Below, piece after piece: positions 8,001 through 24,832 of a DNA stretch of 24,832 nucleotides. The stretch lies in the IMG/VR virus record IMGVR_UViG_2737471828_000007; one strand, 5' to 3'. The DNA is from a virus (lineage: Duplodnaviria; Heunggongvirae; Uroviricota; Caudoviricetes). The notes beneath the pieces were generated by a model, which ran no database searches, was not told the DNA's origin, and was given only the letters and a program-made list of their open reading frames with translations. The translations under genes and the position numbers were made by a program. How positions within the stretch are numbered: the first letter of the stretch is position 1; the number at the start of each line of letters is the position of its first letter.

Positions 8001-8801
8001 TTAACCGCGTTTCGCCTTCTGCGTCGCGGTGGTTTTTCGTGTTGCAGGCTTCCGCGTTGTCTTTTTACTTTTGCTGCTTTCGTCCTGCGCCTGCTGTGTG
8101 CTGGCGTCTTCTGGTGCGGCTGCGGAATCGGCTTTTTTCAGGGCGCGGGAAAGGGTTGCAATCTCGCGTTTCACACCTGCGTTCGGGTTCAGGTGCATTG
8201 CTTCGCGCAGCAGCTTCAGTGACAGGGCCATGCTGTCCGCATCACTCAGGCCACGGCGGGCAAAGGCGCACGCCTTGCATAATTTGGCGCGCACTTCGTC
8301 CGGCATGTCCTGGTCGGTGACAATCTCCCGGAGGGTGTCCAGTGGTTCGATAAAGGCGGACAAATCCGCGTCGGCATCCGTCCCGGCCTGCGTCAGTACC
8401 GGATTGCAGATTTCTTCGGTCAGCACTGTGGCAGCAGTACGGCCAAAGTTATCCGGCATGATGAGGTTGTGACGGACCACATACGCGCCGATACGCAGCG
8501 CAAGCGGAAGATCGCCGCAGTCAATCGCCCACACCATCAGTGTGGCAATCACTTCGTCCTGCTGCCCGCCGTCAGCCTCCAGCGTTCCCTCAATCCAGCC
8601 GGAAAAGTCCGGCAACAACTCTTTTTTGATGGCGGCTTTCGCGCTTCTGGCCTGTACGCCCTTAAGTCGGGCCTGTGCCAGACGCAGACGATACAGCACC
8701 TCTTCATGCGCGGTACGTGCGGCGTGATCCACGCCTTCATTCGCCCGGCCTGCGCGCTGCGCCATCACGTTCTGCCAGTGTTGCTGTGCAGGGGTAATCA
8801 T
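8001..8801 (-). CDS. M: Terminase endonuclease (small) subunit M (P2 gpM-like)
   Basis: 266 aa, basic C-terminal tail; position between N and L; ATG with GGAGAGAAAGA RBS. Confidence 0.85.
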   Translation of the reverse strand: MITPAQQHWQNVMAQRAGRANEGVDHAARTAHEEVLYRLRLAQARLKGVQARSAKAAIKKELLPDFSGWIEGTLEADGGQQDEVIATLMVWAIDCGDLPLALRIGAYVVRHNLIMPDNFGRTAATVLTEEICNPVLTQAGTDADADLSAFIEPLDTLREIVTDQDMPDEVRAKLCKACAFARRGLSDADSMALSLKLLREAMHLNPNAGVKREIATLSRALKKADSAAAPEDASTQQAQDESSKSKKTTRKPATRKTTATQKAKRG

Positions 8802-10913: not shown

Positions 10914-12665
10914 ATGATTCAGGACGCTTTTGTGCGCCAGCGTGCGCGACAACTTTACTGGCAGGGTTATCCGCCCGCTGAAATATCACGTCTGATGGGA
11001 ATAAACCCGAACACGATTTATGCGTGGAAAAAACGCGACCAGTGGGATGAAACGCCACCCGTGCAGCGTGTCACGCAGTCCATCGATGCGCGCCTCATCC
11101 AGCTTACTGAAAAACAGAATAAAACAGGTGGCGACTTCAAAGAAATAGACCTGCTGACCCGGCAGCTTAAAAAACTGCATGATGGCCAGCCGGATGCGAC
11201 GGCCACAGGAAAGAAAGGCCGGGCGAAAAAACTCAAAAATCATTTCACGCCGGAACAGATTGCCGCACTGCGGGAAAAAATCATCAGCAGGCTGGAGTGG
11301 CATCAGCGGGGCTGGTTTGACTCCCTGACCCTTTGCAGGGGAGCCGGGATACGTAACAGGATGATCCTGAAATCCCGACAGATTGGGGCGACCTGGTATT
11401 TTGCACAGGAAGCACTGCTGATGGCGCTGCGTGACGATGTGGCACAACCTTACCAGCGTAACCAGATTTTTTTGTCTGCGTCGCGTCGTCAGGCGTTCCA
11501 GTTTAAAAGCATTATTCAGAAGGCCGCGGCTGAAGTTGATGTGGAGCTGAAAGGGGGCGATAAAATCATCCTCTCCAACGGCGCAGAACTGCATTTTCTC
11601 GGTACTTCTGCTGCGACGGCACAGTCCTACACAGGCAATTTTTATTTTGATGAATTTTTCTGGGTCAGTCGCTTTGCTGAACTGCGCAAGGTGGCTGGCG
11701 CTATGGCAACCCTCAGCGGACTGCGGCGCACCTACTTCTCCACGCCATCCACCGAAACGCACGAGGCATACGCCTACTGGAACGGCGACCGCTGGAACGA
11801 GAAAAAGGCCTCGCATAAACGCCAGCGTTTTTCTGTGGACTGGAAAACGCTGCATAACGGGCTTATCTGCCCTGACCGGACGTGGCGGCAGATTGTCACG
11901 CTGGAAGATGTGGTTAATCACGGCTGGAAACACACCGATATCGACGAAATTCGTGATGAAAACACCGAAGACGAGTTCCTCAATCTCTATATGTGTGAGT
12001 TTGTCCGCGAAGGGGAATCGGCATTTAACCTGAATATCCTGATTGGCTGCGGTGTTGACGGATACGACGACTGGAAAGACTGGAAACCTTTTGCTCCCCG
12101 CCCGATGGGGAATCGTCCGGTATGGATTGGGTATGACGCAAACGGCAGCAGTGGTAACGGCGACAGCGGCGCTGTGTCTGTGGTGGTTCCTCCGGCTGTT
12201 CCTGGTGGCCGTTTTCGAACGGTGGAGACGCGACGCGTTCAGGGGCTGGAGTTTGAAGAACAGGCCAGAGTCATTGAAGAGTTCACGTGTCGCTACAACG
12301 TGGAACACATCGGCATTGATGTGACGGGCGGGAACGGGGAGGCTGTTTATCAGATAGTGAAACGGTTTTTCCCTGCTGCTATTCCGTACACCTTCACGCT
12401 GTCATCAAAACGGTCGCTGGTACTGAAAATGCTGCAAATAATGCGTGCCGGGCGGTGGGAATACGATCGCGCCGAACGCGAGCTGGTCGCGGCCTTTAAC
12501 GCCGTGCGTAAGGTGAAAACACCGGGCGGCTTTATCACTTACGAAACGGACCGCGCGAGGGGGATCAGCCACGGCGACCTTGCGTGGGCAACCATGCTTG
12601 CTGTCATTAACGAACCGATTGGCGGCGAAGGAGAAAACGAGCGTTTCACGGTTATGGAGTTCTGA
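10914..12665 (+). CDS. P: Terminase ATPase (large) subunit P (P2 gpP-like)
   Basis: 583 aa; ATG at 10914 with GGGGGAG RBS; P2 P-like sequence; followed by Q with ATGA-type overlap. Confidence 0.9.
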   Translation: MIQDAFVRQRARQLYWQGYPPAEISRLMGINPNTIYAWKKRDQWDETPPVQRVTQSIDARLIQLTEKQNKTGGDFKEIDLLTRQLKKLHDGQPDATATGKKGRAKKLKNHFTPEQIAALREKIISRLEWHQRGWFDSLTLCRGAGIRNRMILKSRQIGATWYFAQEALLMALRDDVAQPYQRNQIFLSASRRQAFQFKSIIQKAAAEVDVELKGGDKIILSNGAELHFLGTSAATAQSYTGNFYFDEFFWVSRFAELRKVAGAMATLSGLRRTYFSTPSTETHEAYAYWNGDRWNEKKASHKRQRFSVDWKTLHNGLICPDRTWRQIVTLEDVVNHGWKHTDIDEIRDENTEDEFLNLYMCEFVREGESAFNLNILIGCGVDGYDDWKDWKPFAPRPMGNRPVWIGYDANGSSGNGDSGAVSVVVPPAVPGGRFRTVETRRVQGLEFEEQARVIEEFTCRYNVEHIGIDVTGGNGEAVYQIVKRFFPAAIPYTFTLSSKRSLVLKMLQIMRAGRWEYDRAERELVAAFNAVRKVKTPGGFITYETDRARGISHGDLAWATMLAVINEPIGGEGENERFTVMEF

Positions 12666-13711
12666 TGAGCAGAAAAAATAAAAAAGTGCGCATGAGTTCA
12701 CGCATTGATCTCGCTGATGCGCTCAGGAAAGAATCATCGCTCAGTGCATTCACATTTGATGGTCCTTATCGCCTGACCGGGCATGACCTGCTGGACAATA
12801 TGTACTGTGCTGATAACGGGCGGTGGTATGAAACCCCGGTGGACTGGTACGGTCTGGCAAGAGCTGCCCGGCAAACGTCCTGGCATCAGTCTGCGCTTTA
12901 CTTTAAGCGCAATGTATTACTCGGTTGCTACATCCCGCACCCGCTGCTTTCCCGGCAGGATTTCTCGGCGCTGGCGCTGGACTGGTTTGTGTTCGGTAAC
13001 GCATTCCTTGAGCTTCGAAGCAATATGCTCGGCGAACCGCTTAAATTACGGCACGCACTGGCGAAATACATGCGACGCGGAAGCGATCTTGAATCATGGT
13101 GGTATGTGCAGGATGGCAAGGACGCGTTTCAGTTTCGCCCAGGCAAAGTGTGTCACCTGATGAATCCTGACATTAACCAGGAAATCTACGGCATGCCGGA
13201 ATATCTCGGCGCATTACTCTCGGCCAGCCTGTCTCATTCGGCGGACATGTTCAGAAAACTGTATTACGACAACGGATCCCACGCCGGGTGCATCATCTAC
13301 ATCGGTGCAGCGCAGGTAAACCGCGAAAGCATGGACTCCCTGAAAGAAACGCTACAGGGTGCGCGTGGTGGTGGTGCGTTTAAAAACGTGCTCATTCATG
13401 CGCCCAACGGGGGCAAAGAGGGGGTGCAAATTTTGCCGTTCCAGCAGATCACCGCAAAGGATGAGTTTATGAATGTTAAGGCGGCATCCCGTGATGATGT
13501 GCTGGCTGCGCACCGCGTTCCGCCGCAACTGATGGGGGCGATGCCGGGCGAAAAAAGTGCGTTTGGCGATGTGGAGAAGGCAGCGCGGGTTTACGCAATT
13601 AACGAGCTGATGCCCGTCATGGAGGCTATGAAGCACATCAATGACTGGCTTGGCGAAGAGGTGATCCGTTTTAACTCTTATGCTCTTCTTGATGAAAAAA
13701 CAGCCCCGTGA
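12665..13711 (+). CDS. Q: Portal (capsid-vertex) protein Q (P2 gpQ-like)
   Basis: 348 aa ORF immediately after P; P2 Q-like sequence. Confidence 0.9.
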   Translation: MSRKNKKVRMSSRIDLADALRKESSLSAFTFDGPYRLTGHDLLDNMYCADNGRWYETPVDWYGLARAARQTSWHQSALYFKRNVLLGCYIPHPLLSRQDFSALALDWFVFGNAFLELRSNMLGEPLKLRHALAKYMRRGSDLESWWYVQDGKDAFQFRPGKVCHLMNPDINQEIYGMPEYLGALLSASLSHSADMFRKLYYDNGSHAGCIIYIGAAQVNRESMDSLKETLQGARGGGAFKNVLIHAPNGGKEGVQILPFQQITAKDEFMNVKAASRDDVLAAHRVPPQLMGAMPGEKSAFGDVEKAARVYAINELMPVMEAMKHINDWLGEEVIRFNSYALLDEKTAP

Positions 13712-13727
13712 TGGGGCTGTCCTTTTT
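13693..13727. terminator. Bidirectional intrinsic terminator shared by Q (+) and the convergent gene at 13726..14250 (-)
   Basis: Perfect 7-bp stem CAGCCCC/GGGGCTG with 5-nt loop, A6 run upstream and T5 run downstream; the Q stop codon sits in the loop. Confidence 0.7.
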
Positions 13728-14250
13728 ACCAGAGTTGAACCATTTTCTGGGTGCCGTCAGGCTTGAGATTATCAATTTCAGAGAGAACGTAATATTGAAT
13801 GGCTTCACAAACGGTGGTGTAAGGTGAATTACCTTCTTTAAGTGGCACGATATTATTATTAACGCGAACCTGTATTTCATCGTTATACATTGCGATCGAA
13901 ACAGGAGTGTGCACGAACGCGACTTCGCCAGGTGTGTCGTCAACCACCGTTTCAATACTAAAAGTCAGTTTTCGCTCATCATTGCTGCCCCGTGCTTTGG
14001 GGGTAGCGGCAGGGATCTGGGATAAAGGCATTCTGCGAAATCCTTCGGCTGCTTCCAGTCCGCATGAAACGTAATGCTGGCGATTACCGTCGCTATCTGT
14101 CCAGGTCTGTGATGGCAGCTCCAGCGAGATTTCATAATCATCAACAATGCCCTGGGCAAGGCGTACAAGCGGGGTCAGATCTTCATTGCGGCGAAAGCTC
14201 TCCTTTACCTGCTCCCGTTTTTCTCTTAACTGCTTGTAATTAATGACCAT
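13726..14250 (-). CDS. Hypothetical protein (174 aa), standalone cargo gene next to the expected cos end
   Basis: Track ORF 13726..14289; start placed at internal ATG (MVINYKQLREK...) preceded by GGAGG; convergent with Q; I recognise no family; AT-richer than the flanking structural genes by eye. Confidence 0.65.
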   Translation of the reverse strand: MVINYKQLREKREQVKESFRRNEDLTPLVRLAQGIVDDYEISLELPSQTWTDSDGNRQHYVSCGLEAAEGFRRMPLSQIPAATPKARGSNDERKLTFSIETVVDDTPGEVAFVHTPVSIAMYNDEIQVRVNNNIVPLKEGNSPYTTVCEAIQYYVLSEIDNLKPDGTQKMVQLW

Positions 14251-14289
14251 AAGACAGCCTCCATTGATTTCTTTGCTCGTATTTTGCAC

Positions 14290-14836
14290 TTATGAAGTAT
14301 GATCGGCAAGGTGCCGTATCGCTGACGCGCTTCGCTTGTCTGCTGCTTCGCCGGGGCATAAAAAATTTATGCCCCGACTCTCCAGCTCCTGTATCAATCA
14401 GATAATTTCACGACGCCTTCCAGCTTATTGTCATCATCGACGGTCAGGCTCTTACGCAATCCCGCCGTGCTGACTGCATGTTCTCGTCGCCTCAGTGCGA
14501 TTTTGACGGCCTTATCAGTCACCCCATCAAATCAAAAGTCCTCACGTATTTTTCACGCTCAGCGTGAGAAAGACAGCCATTCTGTTGTGTCGCTGCGACA
14601 TCGTTCAGGGAATGCTGTTTACCCCCTGAAACGCGGGCTGTTCCCCCGTCACCTGCGCGCAGAAAAAGCGCGTTTTTTTGTGCACGCACGGATCCTTGAC
14701 GGATCCAGCCGCCATGCGGGCCGGAAGGGTAAAAAGTCGTTCAAAAAAATTGTGCAAATTTGTGCACTTTTGTGCAAACAAAAAGCGCCCCTGAGGCGCT
14801 TTAGTGTTTTATAGGTTGTGTATATTGGCTGGGTCC
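14290..14836. promoter_or_regulatory. About 550 bp non-coding region with several palindromes and repeats; probable promoter/operator region of the 13726..14250 gene and candidate location of cos
   Basis: No credible ORF (the only track ORF is Arg-rich and low-complexity); 10-bp palindrome GGGGCATAAA/TTTATGCCCC near 14353..14375; TCACGCT-c-AGCGTGA near 14555; TGTCGC-t-GCGACA near 14587; TTGTGCA repeated three times at 10-11 bp spacing near 14749..14778. Confidence 0.5.
14771..14802 (-). terminator. Intrinsic terminator at the end of the parM-parR-orf-orf operon
   Basis: Stem AAAGCGCC/GGCGCTTT with 5-nt loop followed on the minus strand by a T-rich run; about 35 nt downstream of the stop at 14837. 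Confidence 0.65.
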
Positions 14837-15100
14837 TTATCCTGCTGTGCTTTCAACTGATGAGGGGAACAAAATCTTTTCATCAAACCCTGCATTCATA
14901 TCATGGACAGCAACACACCAATCCATTGACGAACGATTATCAAGAGCCTCCATGATTTCATCCATGCGGCGTAGGTCATACAGGTAAATGTTTTTATCGC
15001 CAATGGTGTAAAAACCAATTTTTTTCGGTGATGGACAGCGATCAAGAACGTCCTGTAATTCGCTCAACCATGCTTGTTCTTTTTTTGTCAAAGTTGCCAT
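14837..15100 (-). CDS. Hypothetical protein (87 aa), last gene of the par operon
   Basis: Track ORF 14837..15121 (TTG first); ATG at 15100..15098 with AAGGAGAG RBS, 1 nt after the stop of the upstream gene; no family recognised. Confidence 0.6.
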   Translation of the reverse strand: MATLTKKEQAWLSELQDVLDRCPSPKKIGFYTIGDKNIYLYDLRRMDEIMEALDNRSSMDWCVAVHDMNAGFDEKILFPSSVESTAG

Positions 15101-15101
15101 A

Positions 15102-15533
15102 TCACTCTCCTTTGATGCCAATGTCTACAGCTTGGCAAGCCTCTTTGGTCACCCAGTCAATAGCGTCTTTCCATACTCCAGTTTCGACTGGCGGATTCTC
15201 ACGCTTTACCTGTTCATAGAAACGCACCGCTCTAACCAGTCCATCTGGTACTGCTGGCGCTGGCGGCTCTCGATACATAGGGATAACACGTCGCGGGTCC
15301 GCGTATTTATCTGGCGGACACTGAAATATCTCACCGAAACCATACTGCTTGACATCACGCAGTTCCTCATCATCAGTCCATGCAACAGGTTTCGCTTCCA
15401 GCGATGTGAGTGCGATTTTCAGTGCGATTAACATATTGTGATCGTTTTCATCAAGGCCAAACGGGATGTCTTCACGACACGATTCAAGGTCTGCAATTTT
15501 GCGTTGTAACCATTTTTTGGGGATAGTTGCCAT
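15102..15533 (-). CDS. Hypothetical acidic protein (143 aa), third gene of the par operon
   Basis: ATG at 15533 with GGAGAGGAG RBS, 19 nt after the parR stop; no family recognised. Confidence 0.65.
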   Translation of the reverse strand: MATIPKKWLQRKIADLESCREDIPFGLDENDHNMLIALKIALTSLEAKPVAWTDDEELRDVKQYGFGEIFQCPPDKYADPRRVIPMYREPPAPAVPDGLVRAVRFYEQVKRENPPVETGVWKDAIDWVTKEACQAVDIGIKGE

Positions 15534-15552: not shown

Positions 15553-15867
15553 TCACTCTGGGAAAAATGACTGAATGTTCTTTCTTATCTCGCTAGTGCT
15601 GTGATTGCTTCCGGTGGCAGGTGCGCTGGCATATTTACTCTGAATATTATTCTTGGCTGGCGCAGCTCCTTCTTCCGGCCATTCGGCCAACCAATAGGCA
15701 AATGCAGGATCGCGTTTTATGAGTGCCAGCCCGGCCAGAAAGGCCGCGCGTTGCGCGCGGCTGCGTTCAGAGGCTGGCAGGCTGTCGAGGTAATTACACG
15801 CCTCCCGTTCACTATTGACGGCGACTGGCTTCAGATAGAAACTTATCCGTCTGGTTGGTGTCGTCAT
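15553..15867 (-). CDS. parR: ParR/StbB-like centromere-binding protein (type II partition adaptor)
   Basis: Track ORF 15553..16002; start placed at internal ATG (MTTPTRRISFYLKPVAV...) with AAGGAG RBS, 4 nt after the parM stop; ISFYLKP...LDSLPASERSRAQRAAFLAGLAL resembles plasmid R1 ParR (ribbon-helix-helix N-terminus). Confidence 0.75.
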   Translation of the reverse strand: MTTPTRRISFYLKPVAVNSEREACNYLDSLPASERSRAQRAAFLAGLALIKRDPAFAYWLAEWPEEGAAPAKNNIQSKYASAPATGSNHSTSEIRKNIQSFFPE

Positions 15868-15871
15868 TGGT

Positions 15872-16831
15872 TTACTCCTTGTCCATTGCGTACAGCCCAT
15901 TAACCAGAGCAAACTGTGGCACCCCGTCCGCGATGAAAGTCGCATTAACTCCGCAGGCTTCGCGGATAGCGGGTGCCACAATCTCCGCCCCGCCACCGAC
16001 AACCATCACCCGCCCGTAACCCGAAAAACCCGCCAGCGCGCGGATCACGCGTTGTTTCAGTGTTTCTTCCTTTTCACGAATAACCGCCATCAGGCTGGCG
16101 TAATGCGCGTCATTGTGGATGTGCTGGCGCAGCCAGGCTTCATCATGGCGATGTTCGATAATGGTATTGGCGATGTGGTGACTGGTGCGCATACCGTTAG
16201 TGGCCATCACCGACAGTACGGCATCGGCCATCAGAGAAACGCCTACGTGTGGATCGCAAAACATCTGGCTGATACCTGCCAGTTGCCCCTGAACCTTTGC
16301 CACATCCAGCGTGGTTCCGCCCAAATCCACAATCAGCAGGGATTCAAACGGACTCATGTCAGCCAGTGCCTTAAAGCCAGCCGGAATGGATTCAGGCATA
16401 ACCCGTACGTTACGGATAGTGAATGCTTCGCCGTTCTGGTACTCCACCGGGCGCATAACGTTCGCTTTTTTGCGGTTGATGTTGGTCATGTCCGGCTGTG
16501 CGTTTGTGTCGAAATACTCGCTCAGTGGCAGGGTGACAACCACATCCACCTCCTGTGGCGTGATGCCTGATTTGACCAGCGCGTGATGAATGGCAATGAC
16601 ATTCACATCGCTGTACTGGTATTGCGTGTCGGTCGTCTGGACAAAGCGATCGCTGACCGGATCAAAACCATAGCGCACGCCATCAAGCATATAGTTCGCG
16701 GGCTGCGTGCCACAGAACGGCGCAGACCATTCCGACTTGAAGCTGTTCGGGCTGATGGCGTTGCGGCGTTCGCCGTTCTCAGTCCATGCCAGCTTGATGT
16801 TGGTGGAGCCGTCGTCAATACAAATTTTCAT
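15872..16831 (-). CDS. parM: ParM/StbA-like actin-fold segregation ATPase (type II partition)
   Basis: 319 aa; hallmark ParM motifs IDDGSTNIK, ISPNSF, QYSDVNV..HHAL, VMPESIPAG, DLGGTTLD, GGGAE, LVNG; same length as R1 ParM. Confidence 0.85.
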   Translation of the reverse strand: MKICIDDGSTNIKLAWTENGERRNAISPNSFKSEWSAPFCGTQPANYMLDGVRYGFDPVSDRFVQTTDTQYQYSDVNVIAIHHALVKSGITPQEVDVVVTLPLSEYFDTNAQPDMTNINRKKANVMRPVEYQNGEAFTIRNVRVMPESIPAGFKALADMSPFESLLIVDLGGTTLDVAKVQGQLAGISQMFCDPHVGVSLMADAVLSVMATNGMRTSHHIANTIIEHRHDEAWLRQHIHNDAHYASLMAVIREKEETLKQRVIRALAGFSGYGRVMVVGGGAEIVAPAIREACGVNATFIADGVPQFALVNGLYAMDKE

Positions 16832-16860: not shown

Positions 16861-16975
16861 CGTTTACGGGATTCTGAAATCCCGTTTTTGCCTGTTTTAT
16901 GCGCGCTTCATATATCGCGGCGCGTTTTTTGCTCATTTACGGGATTTGTGAATCCCGTTTTTGTCTGTTTTTTGT
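16861..16975. repeat. parC-like repeat region upstream of parM: two direct repeats of about 38 bp, each with a perfect 8-bp inverted repeat, flanking a GC-rich palindrome
   Basis: TTTACGGGATTCTGAAATCCCGTTTTTGCCTGTTTT (about 16863..16900) and TTTACGGGATTTGTGAATCCCGTTTTTGTCTGTTTT (about 16936..16973), about 73 bp apart; each contains ACGGGATT-N4-AATCCCGT; between them CGCGC...GCGCG followed by T6. Overlaps the 3' end of the A ORF. Confidence 0.6.
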
Positions 16976-19733
16976 TTCCACTGGTCAGGCCACCCCGCAG
17001 CAGGTCTGCTTTGCGGCGGGCGCGTTCAGTGGTTTCACTGATTCTCTGTGCGTGCTCTGCGTCGCGGATGGCGCGCAGCATGTCAGAAAGCACGGTAACG
17101 GGTGTTTTCATGGTGTTCTGGTCTTGCTGAAGTGTGGATGCCAGGCGTGCGGCGGCTTCAGGGTCTGATACCCCAAGCTGTTCCAGATAGCTGGCGACCG
17201 GGTTATGGCGGATCTCCGTGCTGCTTACGCCGTGATTACGGCTCAGGCGTTGCCAGAGCTGCGTGATTCGGCTGTCCGGGCGGGTATCCGGTTTGCGTAC
17301 AATTTCAAATCCCTGCGGTGCAATGATGCTGCCGTCAACGTACAGACTGCCGCCCCGTAACAGGTGCTGCATCTGCTGTTCACCGATATGCAGGCCGAGA
17401 GATTCAGCAGACTCCCGCCATTCTTTAGCGAGTAATTCGTAGTTATCAGGCAAAGGCCGCTGCTGTTTGCGGCTCTGTGTCCAGCTCTGCATTTCATCAC
17501 TGCTGTTTTTTGCCTGTTTGTCACGAAGCGAACGCATCAGCGCCCGGCGTTCGTGCCGTTTCAGTGAGCGCATCCATTCGTTCACTTCAACGCCGTCAGG
17601 GAGCTGCGGCCACGGTGCTGGCCGTTCTTTCGGCTGTTCTGTCCCGTTGTTGTCCGTTTCCTGTACACGGGGACAGTTATTGCCACGAGTCCAAGGGGCG
17701 GCAGGGCCGCCCTGAAGGTCAAAACCATTTTCGCGGGCGCTGTCTTCCGCTTCCGGTTTACGTCTTACCAGCTTCCAGTTATCCGGATGCGTGCACACAC
17801 GGGAGGATTCCCCGATGAATGGCGACCAGATCCCGTAAATCTGTACACTCTGTTCGCCGTAATCGTTCAGCTCATCTGCGAGGTCGTAGGCTGTGCGAAT
17901 CAGGTAGTCCTTGCGCGGAACAAGTACGCCACCCTGTTTTTCAATGTAGGTGGCAAAACATCCGGCATCAGCGGCAGCGAGTACCGCATCCATTGCGTCA
18001 TCCTTCAGCCGTTGCGGGCCTTCCGGGTTGCGTGCCATCTGGCTGGCAAGGCGGCGCAGTTCACGCCACACCTGACGGGAGGGGATGCCAAAGAACTGGA
18101 ACTGGCGGACCCGATGAAGGCGCGCCCAGCCGATGGCGCGCTCCACGCTCTCGGCCATTGATTTTCCGGTTTCGTGGTCAACGCGTGGTTTGCCCGTTTT
18201 CGGGTCGATTCCATCCACGGCGCGGCTGTCCAGGTTTTTTCCGATGTAGGTGGCGATGTAGCTGGTTGGCGTGCCTTTGGAGCCGTCGACGTACTCCACC
18301 TTAAAGCGCGGAGTAATATCATTGCCCAGCTCGTGGCGGTCTTCCTGAATGGCAATATCGCGGGTGATGGCCACGATGCTGTCGATTTCTTCCGGATGAG
18401 CAAAGACCATCATATGCCAGTGCACGGTGCCGTCATGGTGAGGCTCCACCGTGCGGATGCCATACCAGCGCAGGCCGTCGCGGTTCAGTTTTTTGCGGAC
18501 CGCCGCAAAAAACGTGTTAACCAGGTAATCGCTGGAGTCGCGCATGGTGGCCCCGTTCCATTTGGGATTCGGATGACCGTTCTCTGTTGTGGCGTGGTAT
18601 TTTGACGGGCAGGTGACAGTCAGAAACACCGCTTTGTCGCCACGGGCTTCGGCCAGAAGTTCCAGTCCCTTCATGGTGGCCATCATTTCTGCCTTACGGT
18701 GAACCGGGTTACTTACTCCCGCGTAATACACTGTCTCGAGATCAATCGTGAAACCGTCTTCGTTTTCCAGTTCGAAGCTCTTCAGGAAGTCGCGGGTTTT
18801 CTCGCGCTGTGCGCGAAACTCGCTTAACGCGTCCTGGCTCAGATAGGGTGATGTTTTTCTGGAAACCAGACAGGCGGCGCGGAGTTGTTCTTCTCTCCAC
18901 TCACAACGTAACAGCCACAGTTTGCGTTTCCACCAGTCCGCACAGGTCAGGCGAAGGATTGCGCCCGGCAGCAGTTCCGTATCCGGTTCGCTCTTGTTCA
19001 GGGCTTCGTAATGTGGCGGCATGATGTGCAGGCGTAATGCGATACGAGCCAGCATCCGGTAAGCCTTCAACATTACATCCATGGTCAGCTCGCCATCTCT
19101 GGCACCAAAGCCATCGCAGAGTGTTTCGAAGGTGCTGCTGAACATCGCCGCGGTCATGGTGGCCAGCGTCTGTATCTGGTGCTTGTTGAGCTGCGGCAGG
19201 TAAAGCAAATCGTCCAGGCGTTCGCGCCCGGCAAGGGAGCGATAACCCGGTGTCAGCCAGCGTCCGTCAGTGCGATCCAGACGTTCGAATATTTTGCGCA
19301 GGGTTCCGCGTGCATAGCGTTCCGCCTGCCAGCTCTTTTTGCCTTTCTGGCGATCGGCTTCCTGTTTTTTGCGCAGGAAAGAGAGGTGGTGGCTCAGTGG
19401 TTCACGCAGATAAACAGGTAGTGCCTTTAGTGTGGCAAAGGCACGGGCTACCGGGTCTTGTTCTGTTGCCCGGCGCTTACTGATGATGCTCTGTGCCAGC
19501 TTTTCACGCTGTCCGGCTTCCTCAAGGGATGCCATGAGTTTTTTACCCATGGCGGATTGTGCGAAAAAGGCTTCTTCCTTCGCTCCCTGTTCTTCCTGTG
19601 CCCTTTTGTCCGCCTCAAGGTAGTAACGGATGGCGCGTTGCAGGTCGGTTTCAGTTTCCTGCCTGCGCTCCGTAAATCTGGCCGGATCAATGGCTGGCCG
19701 TGGTTCATTCCAGCTCCATGCAAACTCACTCAT
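16908..19733 (-). CDS. A: Replication initiation endonuclease A (rolling-circle, P2 gpA-like)
   Basis: Track ORF 16908..19760 (GTG first); ATG at 19733 abuts the stop of the upstream gene; conserved HHDGTVHWHMMVF metal-binding region and YIATYIGKN active-site tyrosine region typical of P2 A. Confidence 0.85.
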   Translation of the reverse strand: MSEFAWSWNEPRPAIDPARFTERRQETETDLQRAIRYYLEADKRAQEEQGAKEEAFFAQSAMGKKLMASLEEAGQREKLAQSIISKRRATEQDPVARAFATLKALPVYLREPLSHHLSFLRKKQEADRQKGKKSWQAERYARGTLRKIFERLDRTDGRWLTPGYRSLAGRERLDDLLYLPQLNKHQIQTLATMTAAMFSSTFETLCDGFGARDGELTMDVMLKAYRMLARIALRLHIMPPHYEALNKSEPDTELLPGAILRLTCADWWKRKLWLLRCEWREEQLRAACLVSRKTSPYLSQDALSEFRAQREKTRDFLKSFELENEDGFTIDLETVYYAGVSNPVHRKAEMMATMKGLELLAEARGDKAVFLTVTCPSKYHATTENGHPNPKWNGATMRDSSDYLVNTFFAAVRKKLNRDGLRWYGIRTVEPHHDGTVHWHMMVFAHPEEIDSIVAITRDIAIQEDRHELGNDITPRFKVEYVDGSKGTPTSYIATYIGKNLDSRAVDGIDPKTGKPRVDHETGKSMAESVERAIGWARLHRVRQFQFFGIPSRQVWRELRRLASQMARNPEGPQRLKDDAMDAVLAAADAGCFATYIEKQGGVLVPRKDYLIRTAYDLADELNDYGEQSVQIYGIWSPFIGESSRVCTHPDNWKLVRRKPEAEDSARENGFDLQGGPAAPWTRGNNCPRVQETDNNGTEQPKERPAPWPQLPDGVEVNEWMRSLKRHERRALMRSLRDKQAKNSSDEMQSWTQSRKQQRPLPDNYELLAKEWRESAESLGLHIGEQQMQHLLRGGSLYVDGSIIAPQGFEIVRKPDTRPDSRITQLWQRLSRNHGVSSTEIRHNPVASYLEQLGVSDPEAAARLASTLQQDQNTMKTPVTVLSDMLRAIRDAEHAQRISETTERARRKADLLRGGLTSGNKKQTKTGFTNPVNEQKTRRDI

Positions 19734-20119
19734 GGCTGGTATCCCGTCACGCGCTGCCACTCCTGCGAGAAGATGGCGGAAAGGCGGTTAAATTCAGCGG
19801 TGTATTCACTCAGCGAGGCACACCCGCCAGCAGTGCGATGCGCCAGCATTGCCGCAAATACGGAGGCCGGGGAGTCATAATACGCCAGCAGTGATTCGCC
19901 GTGTGGTGTCAGGCAGTGCAACGCCAGCCCGTGTGGTGTGAAATCCACGCGGTAGCAGTCGTCTACTGTGAAATAAAGGGTGTCCGCATTCTCCGGTTTT
20001 GTGGTGCGTGCTCTGTTGTCACGACCACGGATGTAGAGATCAAATAATCCCTGAAGAATGGGAGCCAGACGGGTGTCCTGTGTGCGCACCCATCTTGTGA
20101 AGTCATGAGCGTCAATCAT
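19730..20119 (-). CDS. Hypothetical early protein (129 aa) immediately upstream of A
   Basis: ATG at 20119; stop abuts the A start; position equivalent to P2 orf82/orf83; no family recognised. Confidence 0.6.
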   Translation of the reverse strand: MIDAHDFTRWVRTQDTRLAPILQGLFDLYIRGRDNRARTTKPENADTLYFTVDDCYRVDFTPHGLALHCLTPHGESLLAYYDSPASVFAAMLAHRTAGGCASLSEYTAEFNRLSAIFSQEWQRVTGYQP

Positions 20120-20439: not shown

Positions 20440-20660
20440 TTTGTGAGTTTTTGGATACTCACCAACCAGAGTTGAGAATCTCGGGGTGGCGAGACGTACG
20501 GGGTTCTCAACACCGGCAAACGAAGAAACCGGCCCGACCGAAGTCGGCCCCGTACGCCCCACCATAATTCGTGTGCGAAAAAGACGTGGCAATACAGTAC
20601 GCACAAAAAAACCGCTGGCGCGGTTGTGCGCTTCGTTTGTCAGCAGGTTGAGAATCCCGG
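20440..20660 (-). ncRNA. Candidate structured non-coding element inside the early operon (nested inverted repeats, repeated GTTGAGAATC motif, stable tetraloop hairpin)
   Basis: No credible ORF; GTTGAGAATC at about 20471 and 20648 (direct) and inverted at about 20503; 9-bp inverted repeat CGTACGGGG/CCCCGTACG (about 20495 and 20548) enclosing hairpin GGCCCGAC-CGAA-GTCGGCCC, which reads as a UUCG-loop hairpin on the minus (transcribed) strand. Strand and nature (RNA versus DNA site) not established. Confidence 0.35.
20603..20625 (-). terminator. Intrinsic terminator within the early region (minus strand)
   Basis: Stem AACCGC/GCGGTT with 4-nt loop, followed on the minus strand by T7-8. Confidence 0.6.
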
Positions 20661-20747
20661 CACCCGTTTTATGAGGTGCAGCAGAAATGTAACCTGACTG
20701 ATTGCGGCATGGCAAGCGGTTTTTTTGTGTGTGCATGCTCTGATTTC

Positions 20748-23776: not shown

Positions 23777-23842
23777 CCCTTTATTATTCTTACGTTTTAC
23801 AAACTGGAAATGTCTTTCCTCGTTTCACCGGAGGGCTTGCCA

Positions 23843-24832
23843 ATGGCAATTAAAGCGCTCGATGGTGGACGGTATAAAGTGGATGTTAGACCGCGTGGCC
23901 GAAGTGGACGTCGGATTCAGCGGATTTTTAAGAAAAAGGCAGATGCAGTGGCCTTTGAGCGTTATGTTCTCAGCCACATGCACGATAAGGAATGGCTTGA
24001 AAAGCCAACAGAGCAACGTCATCTCTCAGATCTGCTTCCGTTATGGTGGGAATTGGGTGGACGCAATAAGCCATATGCTAACGGCGTTCTAACCAGGTTG
24101 AAAAAAATCATCAAAGAAATGAATGATCCAAGGGTTAGCCAGATTAATGCTCGTTTCATGGCCGCTTATCGAAGCTCCCGTTTATCCTTGGGAGTAAAAG
24201 AGTCTACTGTTCGGCGTGATGAGTCGGATCTCGGAGGAATGTTTACACTCCTGGCAAATGCCGGGGAATTTCACGGAGAAAATCCGCTCCGCGCCCTCCC
24301 CTCTTTGAAACGAAAATCACCCGAAATGACGTATCTCACCACGGAAGAAATCGCCAAATTACTGGATGCAGTAAGCGGTGATGCCCGGCGGATTACGCTA
24401 CTTTGTCTCAGTACTGGTGCGAGATGGGGAGAAGCGAAAAATCTGCGCGCGGAACACATCATCAATAACCGCGTGACGTTTAACAAAACTAAAAACGGAA
24501 AAGTTCGAATTATTCCTGTCTCTGATGAAGTTGTTAGTGAGATCAAAACAAAGAAATCCGGCCTTTTGTTTGACGTCAATTATGAGGAATATCGCAAGGT
24601 GCTTCGCAGTGTTAAGCCTGACCTACCGAAAGGGCAGGCTGTACATGTTCTACGCCATACCTTTGCAGCTCACTTTATGATTAATGGAGGAAATATACTT
24701 ACGCTCCAGCGAATTATGGGGCACGCCACGATCCAGCAAACTATGACCTATGCGCACCTCGCTCCTGATTTCCTCCAGGATGCAATTTCACTTAATCCGT
24801 TAAAAGGAGGTATCCACATTTCATCCACATAA
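23843..24832 (+). CDS. int: Tyrosine integrase (P2 Int-like)
   Basis: Track ORF 23810..24832; start at ATG 23843 (MAIKALDGGRYKVDVRPRGR...) with GGAGGG RBS; conserved LSTGARWGEA, HVLRHTFA, GHATIQQTMTYAH catalytic motifs; TAA stop is the last three bases of the window. Confidence 0.9.
   Translation: MAIKALDGGRYKVDVRPRGRSGRRIQRIFKKKADAVAFERYVLSHMHDKEWLEKPTEQRHLSDLLPLWWELGGRNKPYANGVLTRLKKIIKEMNDPRVSQINARFMAAYRSSRLSLGVKESTVRRDESDLGGMFTLLANAGEFHGENPLRALPSLKRKSPEMTYLTTEEIAKLLDAVSGDARRITLLCLSTGARWGEAKNLRAEHIINNRVTFNKTKNGKVRIIPVSDEVVSEIKTKKSGLLFDVNYEEYRKVLRSVKPDLPKGQAVHVLRHTFAAHFMINGGNILTLQRIMGHATIQQTMTYAHLAPDFLQDAISLNPLKGGIHISST

Follow-up and report, generated by a model that had tools for sequence, protein, structure and literature searches.

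What is a non-coding interval crowded with palindromes and short repeats doing between the portal gene and the cargo genes of a temperate phage? The question is raised by positions 14290-14836 of a 24,832-nucleotide stretch of tailed-phage DNA (IMG/VR record IMGVR_UViG_2737471828_000007), the whole of which is called the window below. An initial annotation, made from the letters alone, had suggested operator arrays, a small RNA and/or the cos region, that is, the packaging site at which virion DNA is cut. With a probability of roughly 0.85, it contains the cos site of a P88-like phage of the P2 family (Peduoviridae), with its functional core at 14618-14776. The cos option is borne out by position, by likeness in sequence and spacing to the sites of P2, 186, P4 and phiRSA1, by the sharing of the block with a satellite-like element and by its conservation in relatives sampled without bias, and terminase genes are present in the same element. 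We infer where the DNA would be cut, the 19-nt overhang, which protein would bind the repeat units and the mobilisation of a satellite.

The window as a whole is, as judged from its sequence, a P88-type P2-family prophage (genus Xuanwuvirus and relatives), and the region around the interval shares 92-98% DNA identity with Escherichia phages PhiR44_2, vB_EcoM-569R5, P88 and others. Read from left to right, the scaffold gene O (minus strand), P (plus) and Q (plus) are followed by the non-coding interval, cargo genes, StbB/ParM and gpA, the last three on the minus strand, and P2-family Pfam domains were found on the matching genes. The portal gene Q (12665..13711, plus strand; Pfam Phage_portal, 47% identity to P2 Q, annotated as portal in PhiR44_2 and P88) thus lies to the left of the cos block, and the replication protein gpA (16908-19760, minus strand, with a P2-family Pfam domain) to its right, an arrangement with equivalents in P88, PhiR44_2, P2 and 186. 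The distance from Q to cos is 924 bp in the window, where a gene has been inserted, about 310 bp in P88 and 167 bp in P2, as counted from the Q stop codon; the last figure corrects the initial annotation, which had put the P2 site within about 100 bp of the Q 3' end. Both terminase subunits are encoded nearby: a gpM-type small subunit of 266 aa (8001..8801, minus strand; Phage_term_smal, E 5.7e-37; 36% identity to P2 gpM) and a gpP-type large subunit of 583 aa (10914..12665, plus strand; Terminase_5, HTH_23, Terminase_6N and Terminase_6C; 44% identity to P2 gpP), the latter being the presumed cos-cutting nuclease/ATPase.

The interval itself was rightly described as lacking a credible open reading frame (ORF). 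The mechanical ORFs, of 42-128 aa, show no gene-like variation across 67 close relatives: there is no excess of changes at third codon positions (e.g. 20/18/16 and 15/13/18), and the longer ORFs are intact in just 0-4 of 52-59 distinct alleles. On these grounds, codon-position variation and broken alleles, the five or six small ORFs of this region, some of them listed as hypothetical proteins in the P88 and PhiR44_2 annotations, were ruled out as genes.

The putative packaging signal, a block of about 160 bp on the plus strand (14618..14776), was delimited by comparison with the satellite and with relatives. The initial annotation had found no P2/186-type core by eye; a diverged one is nevertheless present at 14635..14653, on the minus strand. 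This cosN-like core, GGGCTGTTCCCCCGTCACC, matches the P2 cos sequence with which it was compared (GTGCTTTCCCCGCCTCGCC) at 13 of 19 positions, ungapped and in the same orientation relative to Q, and the 19-nt 5' cohesive end predicted from it on the minus strand is approximately 5'-GGTGACGGGGGAACAGCCC. The cos sites of P2, 186 and P4 have 19-nt 5' cohesive ends within a conserved core of 55 bp (Ziermann & Calendar 1990, as cited in PMC9594776, PMC3931495 and PMC5694545); the literature searched speaks of P2 cos only as this '55-bp core', the original 1990 definition lying outside that search. In an alignment with cos regions of this kind, proposed earlier as a check, MAFFT places the window core with those of P2, P4 and 186. 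The elements of the 55-bp region (the flank, the cohesive end, the hairpin and TTTTAATGCA) all occur in equal order and spacing, with invariant columns CCCC-G-C-C, TTTT and TGCA; overall identity is modest, and the correspondence to the 55-bp region as a whole is tentative. Moreover, related phages carry intermediate cores, CCCCCGCCTCGCC, whose right 12 nt are identical to P2 cos.

Beyond the core, the similarity extends to a spaced array of short units. In P2, P4 and 186 the order from Q is a 19-nt core, a 19-nt GC hairpin, TTTTA, ATGCA, some 66 unrelated bases and three further ATGCA; in the stretches separating the units, P2 and P4 are unrelated in sequence. In the window, three copies of TTGTGCA had been noticed, and these do lie at 14750, 14760 and 14770, exactly 10 bp apart (units 1-3, 14750..14776, plus strand; +117/+127/+137 from the core start), but a fourth copy at 14678, straight after the T-run, had been overlooked. 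This unit 0 (14678..14684, plus strand) stands 45 nt from the core start and is the counterpart of the TAATGCA found at +43 in P2, P4, 186 and phiRSA1. The GTGCA of unit 0 begins at 14680 and those of units 1-3 at 14752, 14762 and 14772, i.e. 72, 82 and 92 bp further, roughly in helical phase, and all four are on one side of the predicted cut site. Counted from the core start, the NTGCA units occur at 43/115/125/137 in P2, at 43/115/125/138 in both P4 and 186, at 43/114/124/143 in phiRSA1 (ATGCA units) and at 45/117/127/137 in the window, the satellite and Enterobacter phage phiT5282H, while phiCTX has CTGCR at 44/53/99/115/125. Unit 1 follows unit 0 at 72 bp in P2, P4, 186 and the window type alike, and CCCCG precedes unit 0 by 31 nt both in P2 and in the window type. 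Over the full window there is no enrichment of TTGTGCA (7 copies, 6.5 expected); four of the seven fall within 99 bp on one strand, where simple arithmetic from the window rate gives an expectation of about 0.03. An A7 tract stands right before unit 1 (14743..14749, plus strand), is strongly conserved and occurs in most of the unbiased relatives described below; it may bend the DNA intrinsically or belong to the recognition site.

Between core and unit 0 there is, as the initial annotation had it, a GC stem followed by T7 on the plus strand (14655..14679; stem of 5-6 pairs at 14655-14673, seven T at 14673-14679; -11.8 kcal/mol), which the terminator scan reports as a terminator-like site. Together with the other stable hairpins and with some 300 bp of conserved non-coding DNA between Q and cos, this site could suggest that the interval encodes a small RNA or a structured transcript, of which 14655-14679 would be the terminator or the hairpin at 14352 a structural part. 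The stem, nonetheless, is weakened in many close relatives by the variants AACGCG and AATGCG and is absent from distant ones, which keep T5-7 followed by GTGCA. Because the T-run and GTGCA persist while the stem is lost, the T-run is more likely to be part of a recognition site than of a terminator, and a conserved terminator made of hairpin and T7 was discarded. In addition, Rfam, searched over 14200-14900 at the gathering threshold and up to E 1, gave no family match, the best score being that of SprD (17.7 bits for a threshold of 100, E 0.35), no promoter-like site was detected, no covariation appeared in any stem tested, and the short palindromes of the interval decay without compensating changes. 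A small RNA is for these reasons very unlikely.

The conservation of the block was followed in several collections. A 169-bp query (14632-14800) has matches in 1140 of 5426 complete E. coli genomes, most of them ending at 14776. In the conservation profile of 74 non-redundant relatives, TCAAAAAAATTGTGCAAATTTGTGCACTTTTGTGCA is among the best-kept blocks and identity drops to zero at 14777; past 14776/14777 each relative carries different cargo with its own terminator hairpin. This boundary agrees with the published cos-proximal hotspot between gpA and gpQ (PMC9122126).

A further comparison came from a weaker, 80% match of the cos query in E. coli C25, which belongs not to a phage but to an integrated element of about 12 kb between hpt and gcd (locus L008, NZ_CP127314.1, approximately 4532.4-4545.0 kb, with the cos block at L008 6987-7145). 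Its genes comprise two integrases, a toprim primase-helicase, an ogr/delta-like gene, an Icd-like gene, a regulator and a P2-family major capsid homologue of 423 aa; portal, terminase and tail genes are missing from its gene content. When L008 was compared with the whole window, blastn returned three matches, namely the non-coding 14618-14776 (81.6%), part of the integrase gene and the C4-RNA region, so that, as blastn reports it, 14618-14776 is the only non-coding block common to both. A helper's non-coding block that has been copied into an element deficient in packaging is the typical mark of a cos site, and the element probably keeps it in order to be packaged by a P88-type helper. L008-type elements occur in some 53-56 complete E. 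coli genomes, and some variants diverge exactly past the last TTGTGCA. A 7-bp inverted repeat to the left of the core, TTCAGGG/CCCTGAA (14604-14630), was considered as a required element and rejected, being missing from the satellite. As a side observation, the capsid homologue may allow the L008-type element to redirect capsid assembly, as a satellite would.

The same comparisons bear on the operator arrays of the initial annotation, i.e. on the idea that the TTGTGCA array, together with the palindromes, acts as operator or promoter for the cargo genes or for a late or early transcript, with TTGxxx serving as -35-like hexamers. The hexamer TTGTGC does resemble a -35 element and inverted repeats are abundant in the interval: 10 perfect ones (arm of at least 6, loop of at most 8; nested versions counted separately, 6 distinct hairpins), compared with a mean of 1.48 in dinucleotide shuffles, none of 500 of which reached 10. 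In P2, moreover, the third ATGCA overlaps a TTGAAT near the old promoter, and the old-tin transcript starts about 30 nt beyond that unit. Against this, a promoter scan of 14290-14836 returned nothing, and the right-hand cargo genes, on the minus strand, are transcribed toward the array and stop at a hairpin of their own (14782-14802). The unit offsets are fixed whatever the cargo, are matched by the ATGCA offsets of P2, P4 and 186, and persist both in the satellite and in phages whose early regions are unrelated, and the short palindromes are lost in relatives by uncompensated changes. An operator or promoter role is, consequently, highly improbable.

A further candidate for phased 10-bp repeats is a centromere. 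Type II centromeres are arrays of iterons of about 10-11 bp, as in parC of plasmid R1; ParM (StbA_N, ParM_N) and StbB-family genes lie at 15553-16831, so that a parC-like site would be 0.8-2 kb from its partition system. However, unrelated cargo separates the array from the par genes, and the array is downstream of the operon, whereas R1 parC is upstream. It is also kept in the satellite and in many relatives lacking a ParM match (e.g. L011, L019, L021 and L037), and ATGCA arrays exist in P2, P4, 186 and phiRSA1, in whose examined record stretches no partition genes were found. The centromere explanation must be regarded as extremely unlikely. The gene pair itself (minus strand), a type II plasmid partition module, is found in a prophage which also has an integrase (23810-24832), and is present in many relatives and missing from others.

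Several points weigh against the cos reading and have to be set beside the evidence given. To begin with, the IMG/VR relatives were fetched by a pattern containing part of the core and unit 0, and their conservation is therefore partly by construction. A second sample, chosen by portal-protein similarity alone because of this bias, corrects it. It consists of 39 Enterobacterales loci, one genome per species, in which the layout was defined as TGC[AG] units at spacings of 72 +/- 1 and 10 +/- 1 within 1.5 kb downstream of Q. The layout was present in 32 (strict) to 36 (loose) of the 39 loci and in 3 to 7 of 117 control stretches. Of 36 loci, 34 have TTGTGCA as unit 0 and 31 have it as unit 1, units 2 and 3 being looser. 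The 12 nt before unit 0 fall into two classes, CCCGTCACCTGC (the window type) and CCCGCCTCGCC, and since the latter is identical to the right part of P2 cos, it bridges the window core to that of P2.

The other adverse points concern the cut and the players. The core can be placed only to within about 2 nt, similarity indicating 14635-14653 and the spacing ruler 14637-14655. No measured virion ends for P88-like phages were found in the records or literature searched, and none of 18 related phage records starts at the predicted core. A scan of IMG/VR with the core pattern for contigs ending at the cut gave 120 matches, all internal or clipped in the stored sequence, and so bears neither way on the cut. 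The protein binding the GTGCA units may be a host factor, and a second P88-type cos match was found in only 5 of 56 satellite-bearing chromosomes by megablast, a search of limited sensitivity, so that this count says nothing for or against the co-residence of satellite and helper. Finally, the linear record of phage P88_4B11 (LR595891 / NC_049391) has its ends at the position corresponding to 14731/14732, some 80 bp rightward of the core, which is discordant with the prediction.

The last of these supports a variant in which the interval is the cos region and the cut occurs elsewhere in the block, e.g. near 14731, the P2-like core then being a binding or bending element; the segment found there, GGGCCGGAAGGG, is moderately conserved, satellite included. 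The two ends of LR595891, however, meet with neither gap nor overlap, and no overhang is repeated or lost, unlike staggered cohesive ends, and the opening is for that reason read as arbitrary and probably not as virion ends. Moreover, the segment is lost in distant relatives that keep the core and the four units (L009, L015, L037 and the L151 type), while it is the core that lines up with the cut sites established by experiment in P2, 186, P4 and phiRSA1. A cut at such a place is accordingly considered unlikely, but is kept as a rival.

By analogy with P2, the site would work as follows. Late in lytic growth, the terminase (gpM and gpP) would recognise the block of about 160 bp at 14618-14776 and introduce staggered nicks in the GC-rich core, at approximately 14635-14655, leaving the predicted 19-nt 5' ends; the DNA would then enter the prohead through the portal gpQ. 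The four GTGCA units, with the T7 and A7 tracts, may form the docking array of the terminase, in a role like that of cosB in lambda, and two candidates for its reader are the N-terminal helix-turn-helix of gpP and gpM.

The first of these candidates can be compared across phages. The helix-turn-helix of gpP covers residues 6-63, approximately (Terminase_5 / HTH_23), and the record of 186 notes the same motif. In the presumed recognition helix (within residues 1-70 or so, window 10914-11120), T-[IVL]-Y is found in 13 of 13 GTGCA-type phages examined, compared with T-V-Q/H in P2, 186 and phiRSA1 (ATGCA) and T-L-H in phiCTX (CTGCR). As these groups are also separate clades, phylogeny confounds the correlation, which is taken as a lead only. 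A broader, tentative proposal, to which we give somewhat less than even odds, is that the four NTGCA units constitute a terminase-recognition code throughout the P2 family, the first base setting the packaging match between helper and satellite and being perhaps read by the gpP helix-turn-helix. In its proposed layout, one unit stands about 31 nt past CCCCG and three more follow 72, 82 and about 92-95 bp further, with the first-base variants ATGCA in P2, 186, P4 and phiRSA1, GTGCA in P88-like phages and the capsid-encoding satellite, and CTGCR in phiCTX. If true, the code would define packaging-specificity classes for P2-like helpers and satellites.

Variation around this layout was also recorded. 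Among GTGCA-type phages there is a second core class, GCTTGCTCCCCCGCCTCGCC, about 250-340 nt after Q, whose right 12 nt are those of P2 cos (loci L151-L153, L156, L158-L160, L167, L169-L172 and L175); compared with it, the window core is 2 nt shorter and the T-run region 2 nt longer, so that CCCCG and unit 0 remain 31 nt apart. In two IMG/VR loci, L062 and L123 (L123 8830-8900), unit 0 runs into the last unit, TTTTTTGTGCAC being directly followed by TATTGTGCAG, with the 72-bp spacer and two units gone. This variant adjoins a structural module of only 29-37% portal identity, and an ogr-like ORF separates Q from cos; recombination, a deletion or a separate short type of cos could account for it.

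The remaining structures of the interval lie outside the signal. The 'perfect 10-bp palindrome' of the initial annotation is present at 14352..14376, although its arms are of 11 bp (CGGGGCATAAA-aaa-TTTATGCCCCG); the hairpin (dG -17.6 / -20.3 kcal/mol) has no U-tract. In P88 it stands about 40 nt past the Q stop, the position of terminator tQ in P2, and comparison of the sequences indicates that it is the hairpin that ancestrally followed Q, from which a cassette has displaced it in the window. The sequence is unchanged in 64 of 67 close relatives. From 14378 to 14617 there is a weakly conserved spacer with incidental palindromes. The two short ones already noticed are where they had been described: TCACGCT-c-AGCGTGA (14553..14567), perfect in 53 of the 67 close relatives and with one-sided, uncompensated changes in the other 14, and TGTCGC-t-GCGACA (14588..14600), perfect in 35 and broken on one side in 32. 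Both are absent from more distant relatives and are, on this pattern of decay, probably incidental; the one-sided changes rule them out as operators. At the right-hand end, the hairpin at 14782..14802 (minus strand) is, according to the terminator scan, the one at which the leftward cargo genes (14837-15533) terminate. In relatives, other hairpins occupy this place directly past unit 3, and the structure belongs to the variable cargo, outside cos.

The cassette between Q and cos is a 631-bp segment (13687..14317, minus strand) which, by alignment to P88, replaces 18 bp of that phage. It supplies a new C-terminus to Q, the last 8 codons of which are rewritten, and contains a hairpin terminator (13700-13720, terminator scan) and an orphan gene of 174 aa (13726-14250, minus strand, from the ATG at 14250), with a GGAGG ribosome-binding site and an upstream region reaching to 14317. 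The first 28 bp or so of the interval (14290-14317) are consequently the 5' flank of this gene, and homology to P88-type phages restarts at 14318. The orphan protein has no Pfam or PADLOC match, belongs to PHROGs family phrog_5091, of unknown function, and has homologues in Enterobacteriaceae only, none of them named. With this cassette, cargo is present on the Q side of cos too, besides the gpA side.

The cargo genes to the right of cos (14837-15533, minus strand) belong to phrog_1714 and phrog_660, both of unknown function, and have no PADLOC or Pfam match, so that a defence annotation is not supported, either for them or for the orphan gene. Their DNA is about 95% identical to ea22-region genes of lambdoid phages, an identity which indicates that P2-like and lambda-like phages have recently exchanged DNA at the cos-proximal hotspot. 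Away from cos, in the early region, Rfam gave hits above threshold at 20482-20679 (minus strand), where a C4 antisense RNA (79 bits) and isrK (62 bits) are adjacent, a pair that points to a module of the P1/P7-style c4/icd/ant type; with the satellite's Icd-like region (L008 12846-13037) it shares 67% identity.

P2-like cos sites, their sharing with P4 and the cos-proximal cargo hotspot are already well known. For the P88 lineage, no cos annotation was present in the public records examined, RefSeq included, and no paper naming the site appeared in the literature searched. The work thus locates the packaging site of a type of prophage that is very common in E. coli, the block being present in about a fifth of the complete genomes mentioned above, and sets a signal of about 160 bp apart from the cargo on both sides, which should be useful for prophage annotation, for the definition of defence hotspots and for P88-based cosmids or transducing particles. 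Moreover, the conserved spacing of the four NTGCA units in P2, 186, P4, phiRSA1 and the window lineage offers a concrete, mutable candidate for terminase recognition and for helper-satellite specificity.

Among known systems, the closest are the cos sites of P2, 186 and P4. They share with the window a site past the Q 3' end, a GC-rich core (13/19 matches, same orientation) followed by a GC hairpin and a T-run, one NTGCA at +43/45 and three at +115-138, the sharing between helper and satellite, and variable cargo abutting the array. The differences are that the window has GTGCA rather than ATGCA and a last spacing of 10 bp rather than 12-13 bp; compared with P2 in particular, the predicted end is GGTGACGGGGGAACAGCCC instead of GGCGAGGCGGGGAAAGCAC, the terminases are 36-44% identical and the cut sites are predicted ones. 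The Ralstonia phage phiRSA1, whose ends were determined experimentally as 5'-GGTGAGGCGGGG... (PMC5694545), resembles the window in that the predicted end also begins with GGTGA. Both phiRSA1 and phiCTX, distant Peduoviridae, differ from it in the unit sequences and in the gene content around cos, and phiCTX, a Pseudomonas phage, also in its 21-nt end and in having attP/int next to cos. The repeats R1-R6 annotated near cos in phiCTX were not used as an NTGCA array, as they sit with attP and IHF-site annotations.

On the satellite side, L008 is like P4 in being a small element without portal or terminase that carries a helper-type cos block. It is no close relative of P4, however: its primase has only slight similarity to P4 alpha, and its annotation contains neither sid nor psu. 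SaPIbov5 is a cos-type satellite with the capsid homologue Ccm (PMC8569155), and L008 likewise encodes a homologue of the helper's major capsid protein.

The cos of lambda, finally, is organised as cosQ-cosN-cosB and has an IHF site as well as R sites to which the small terminase gpNu1 binds, and the window would be analogous to it in combining a nicking site with a one-sided phased array, the intervening A/T tract of which could bend the DNA. Lambda differs in its 12-nt overhang, and it packages from concatemers, P2 from monomeric circles; the likeness is one of logic alone, with no sequence or protein homology claimed.

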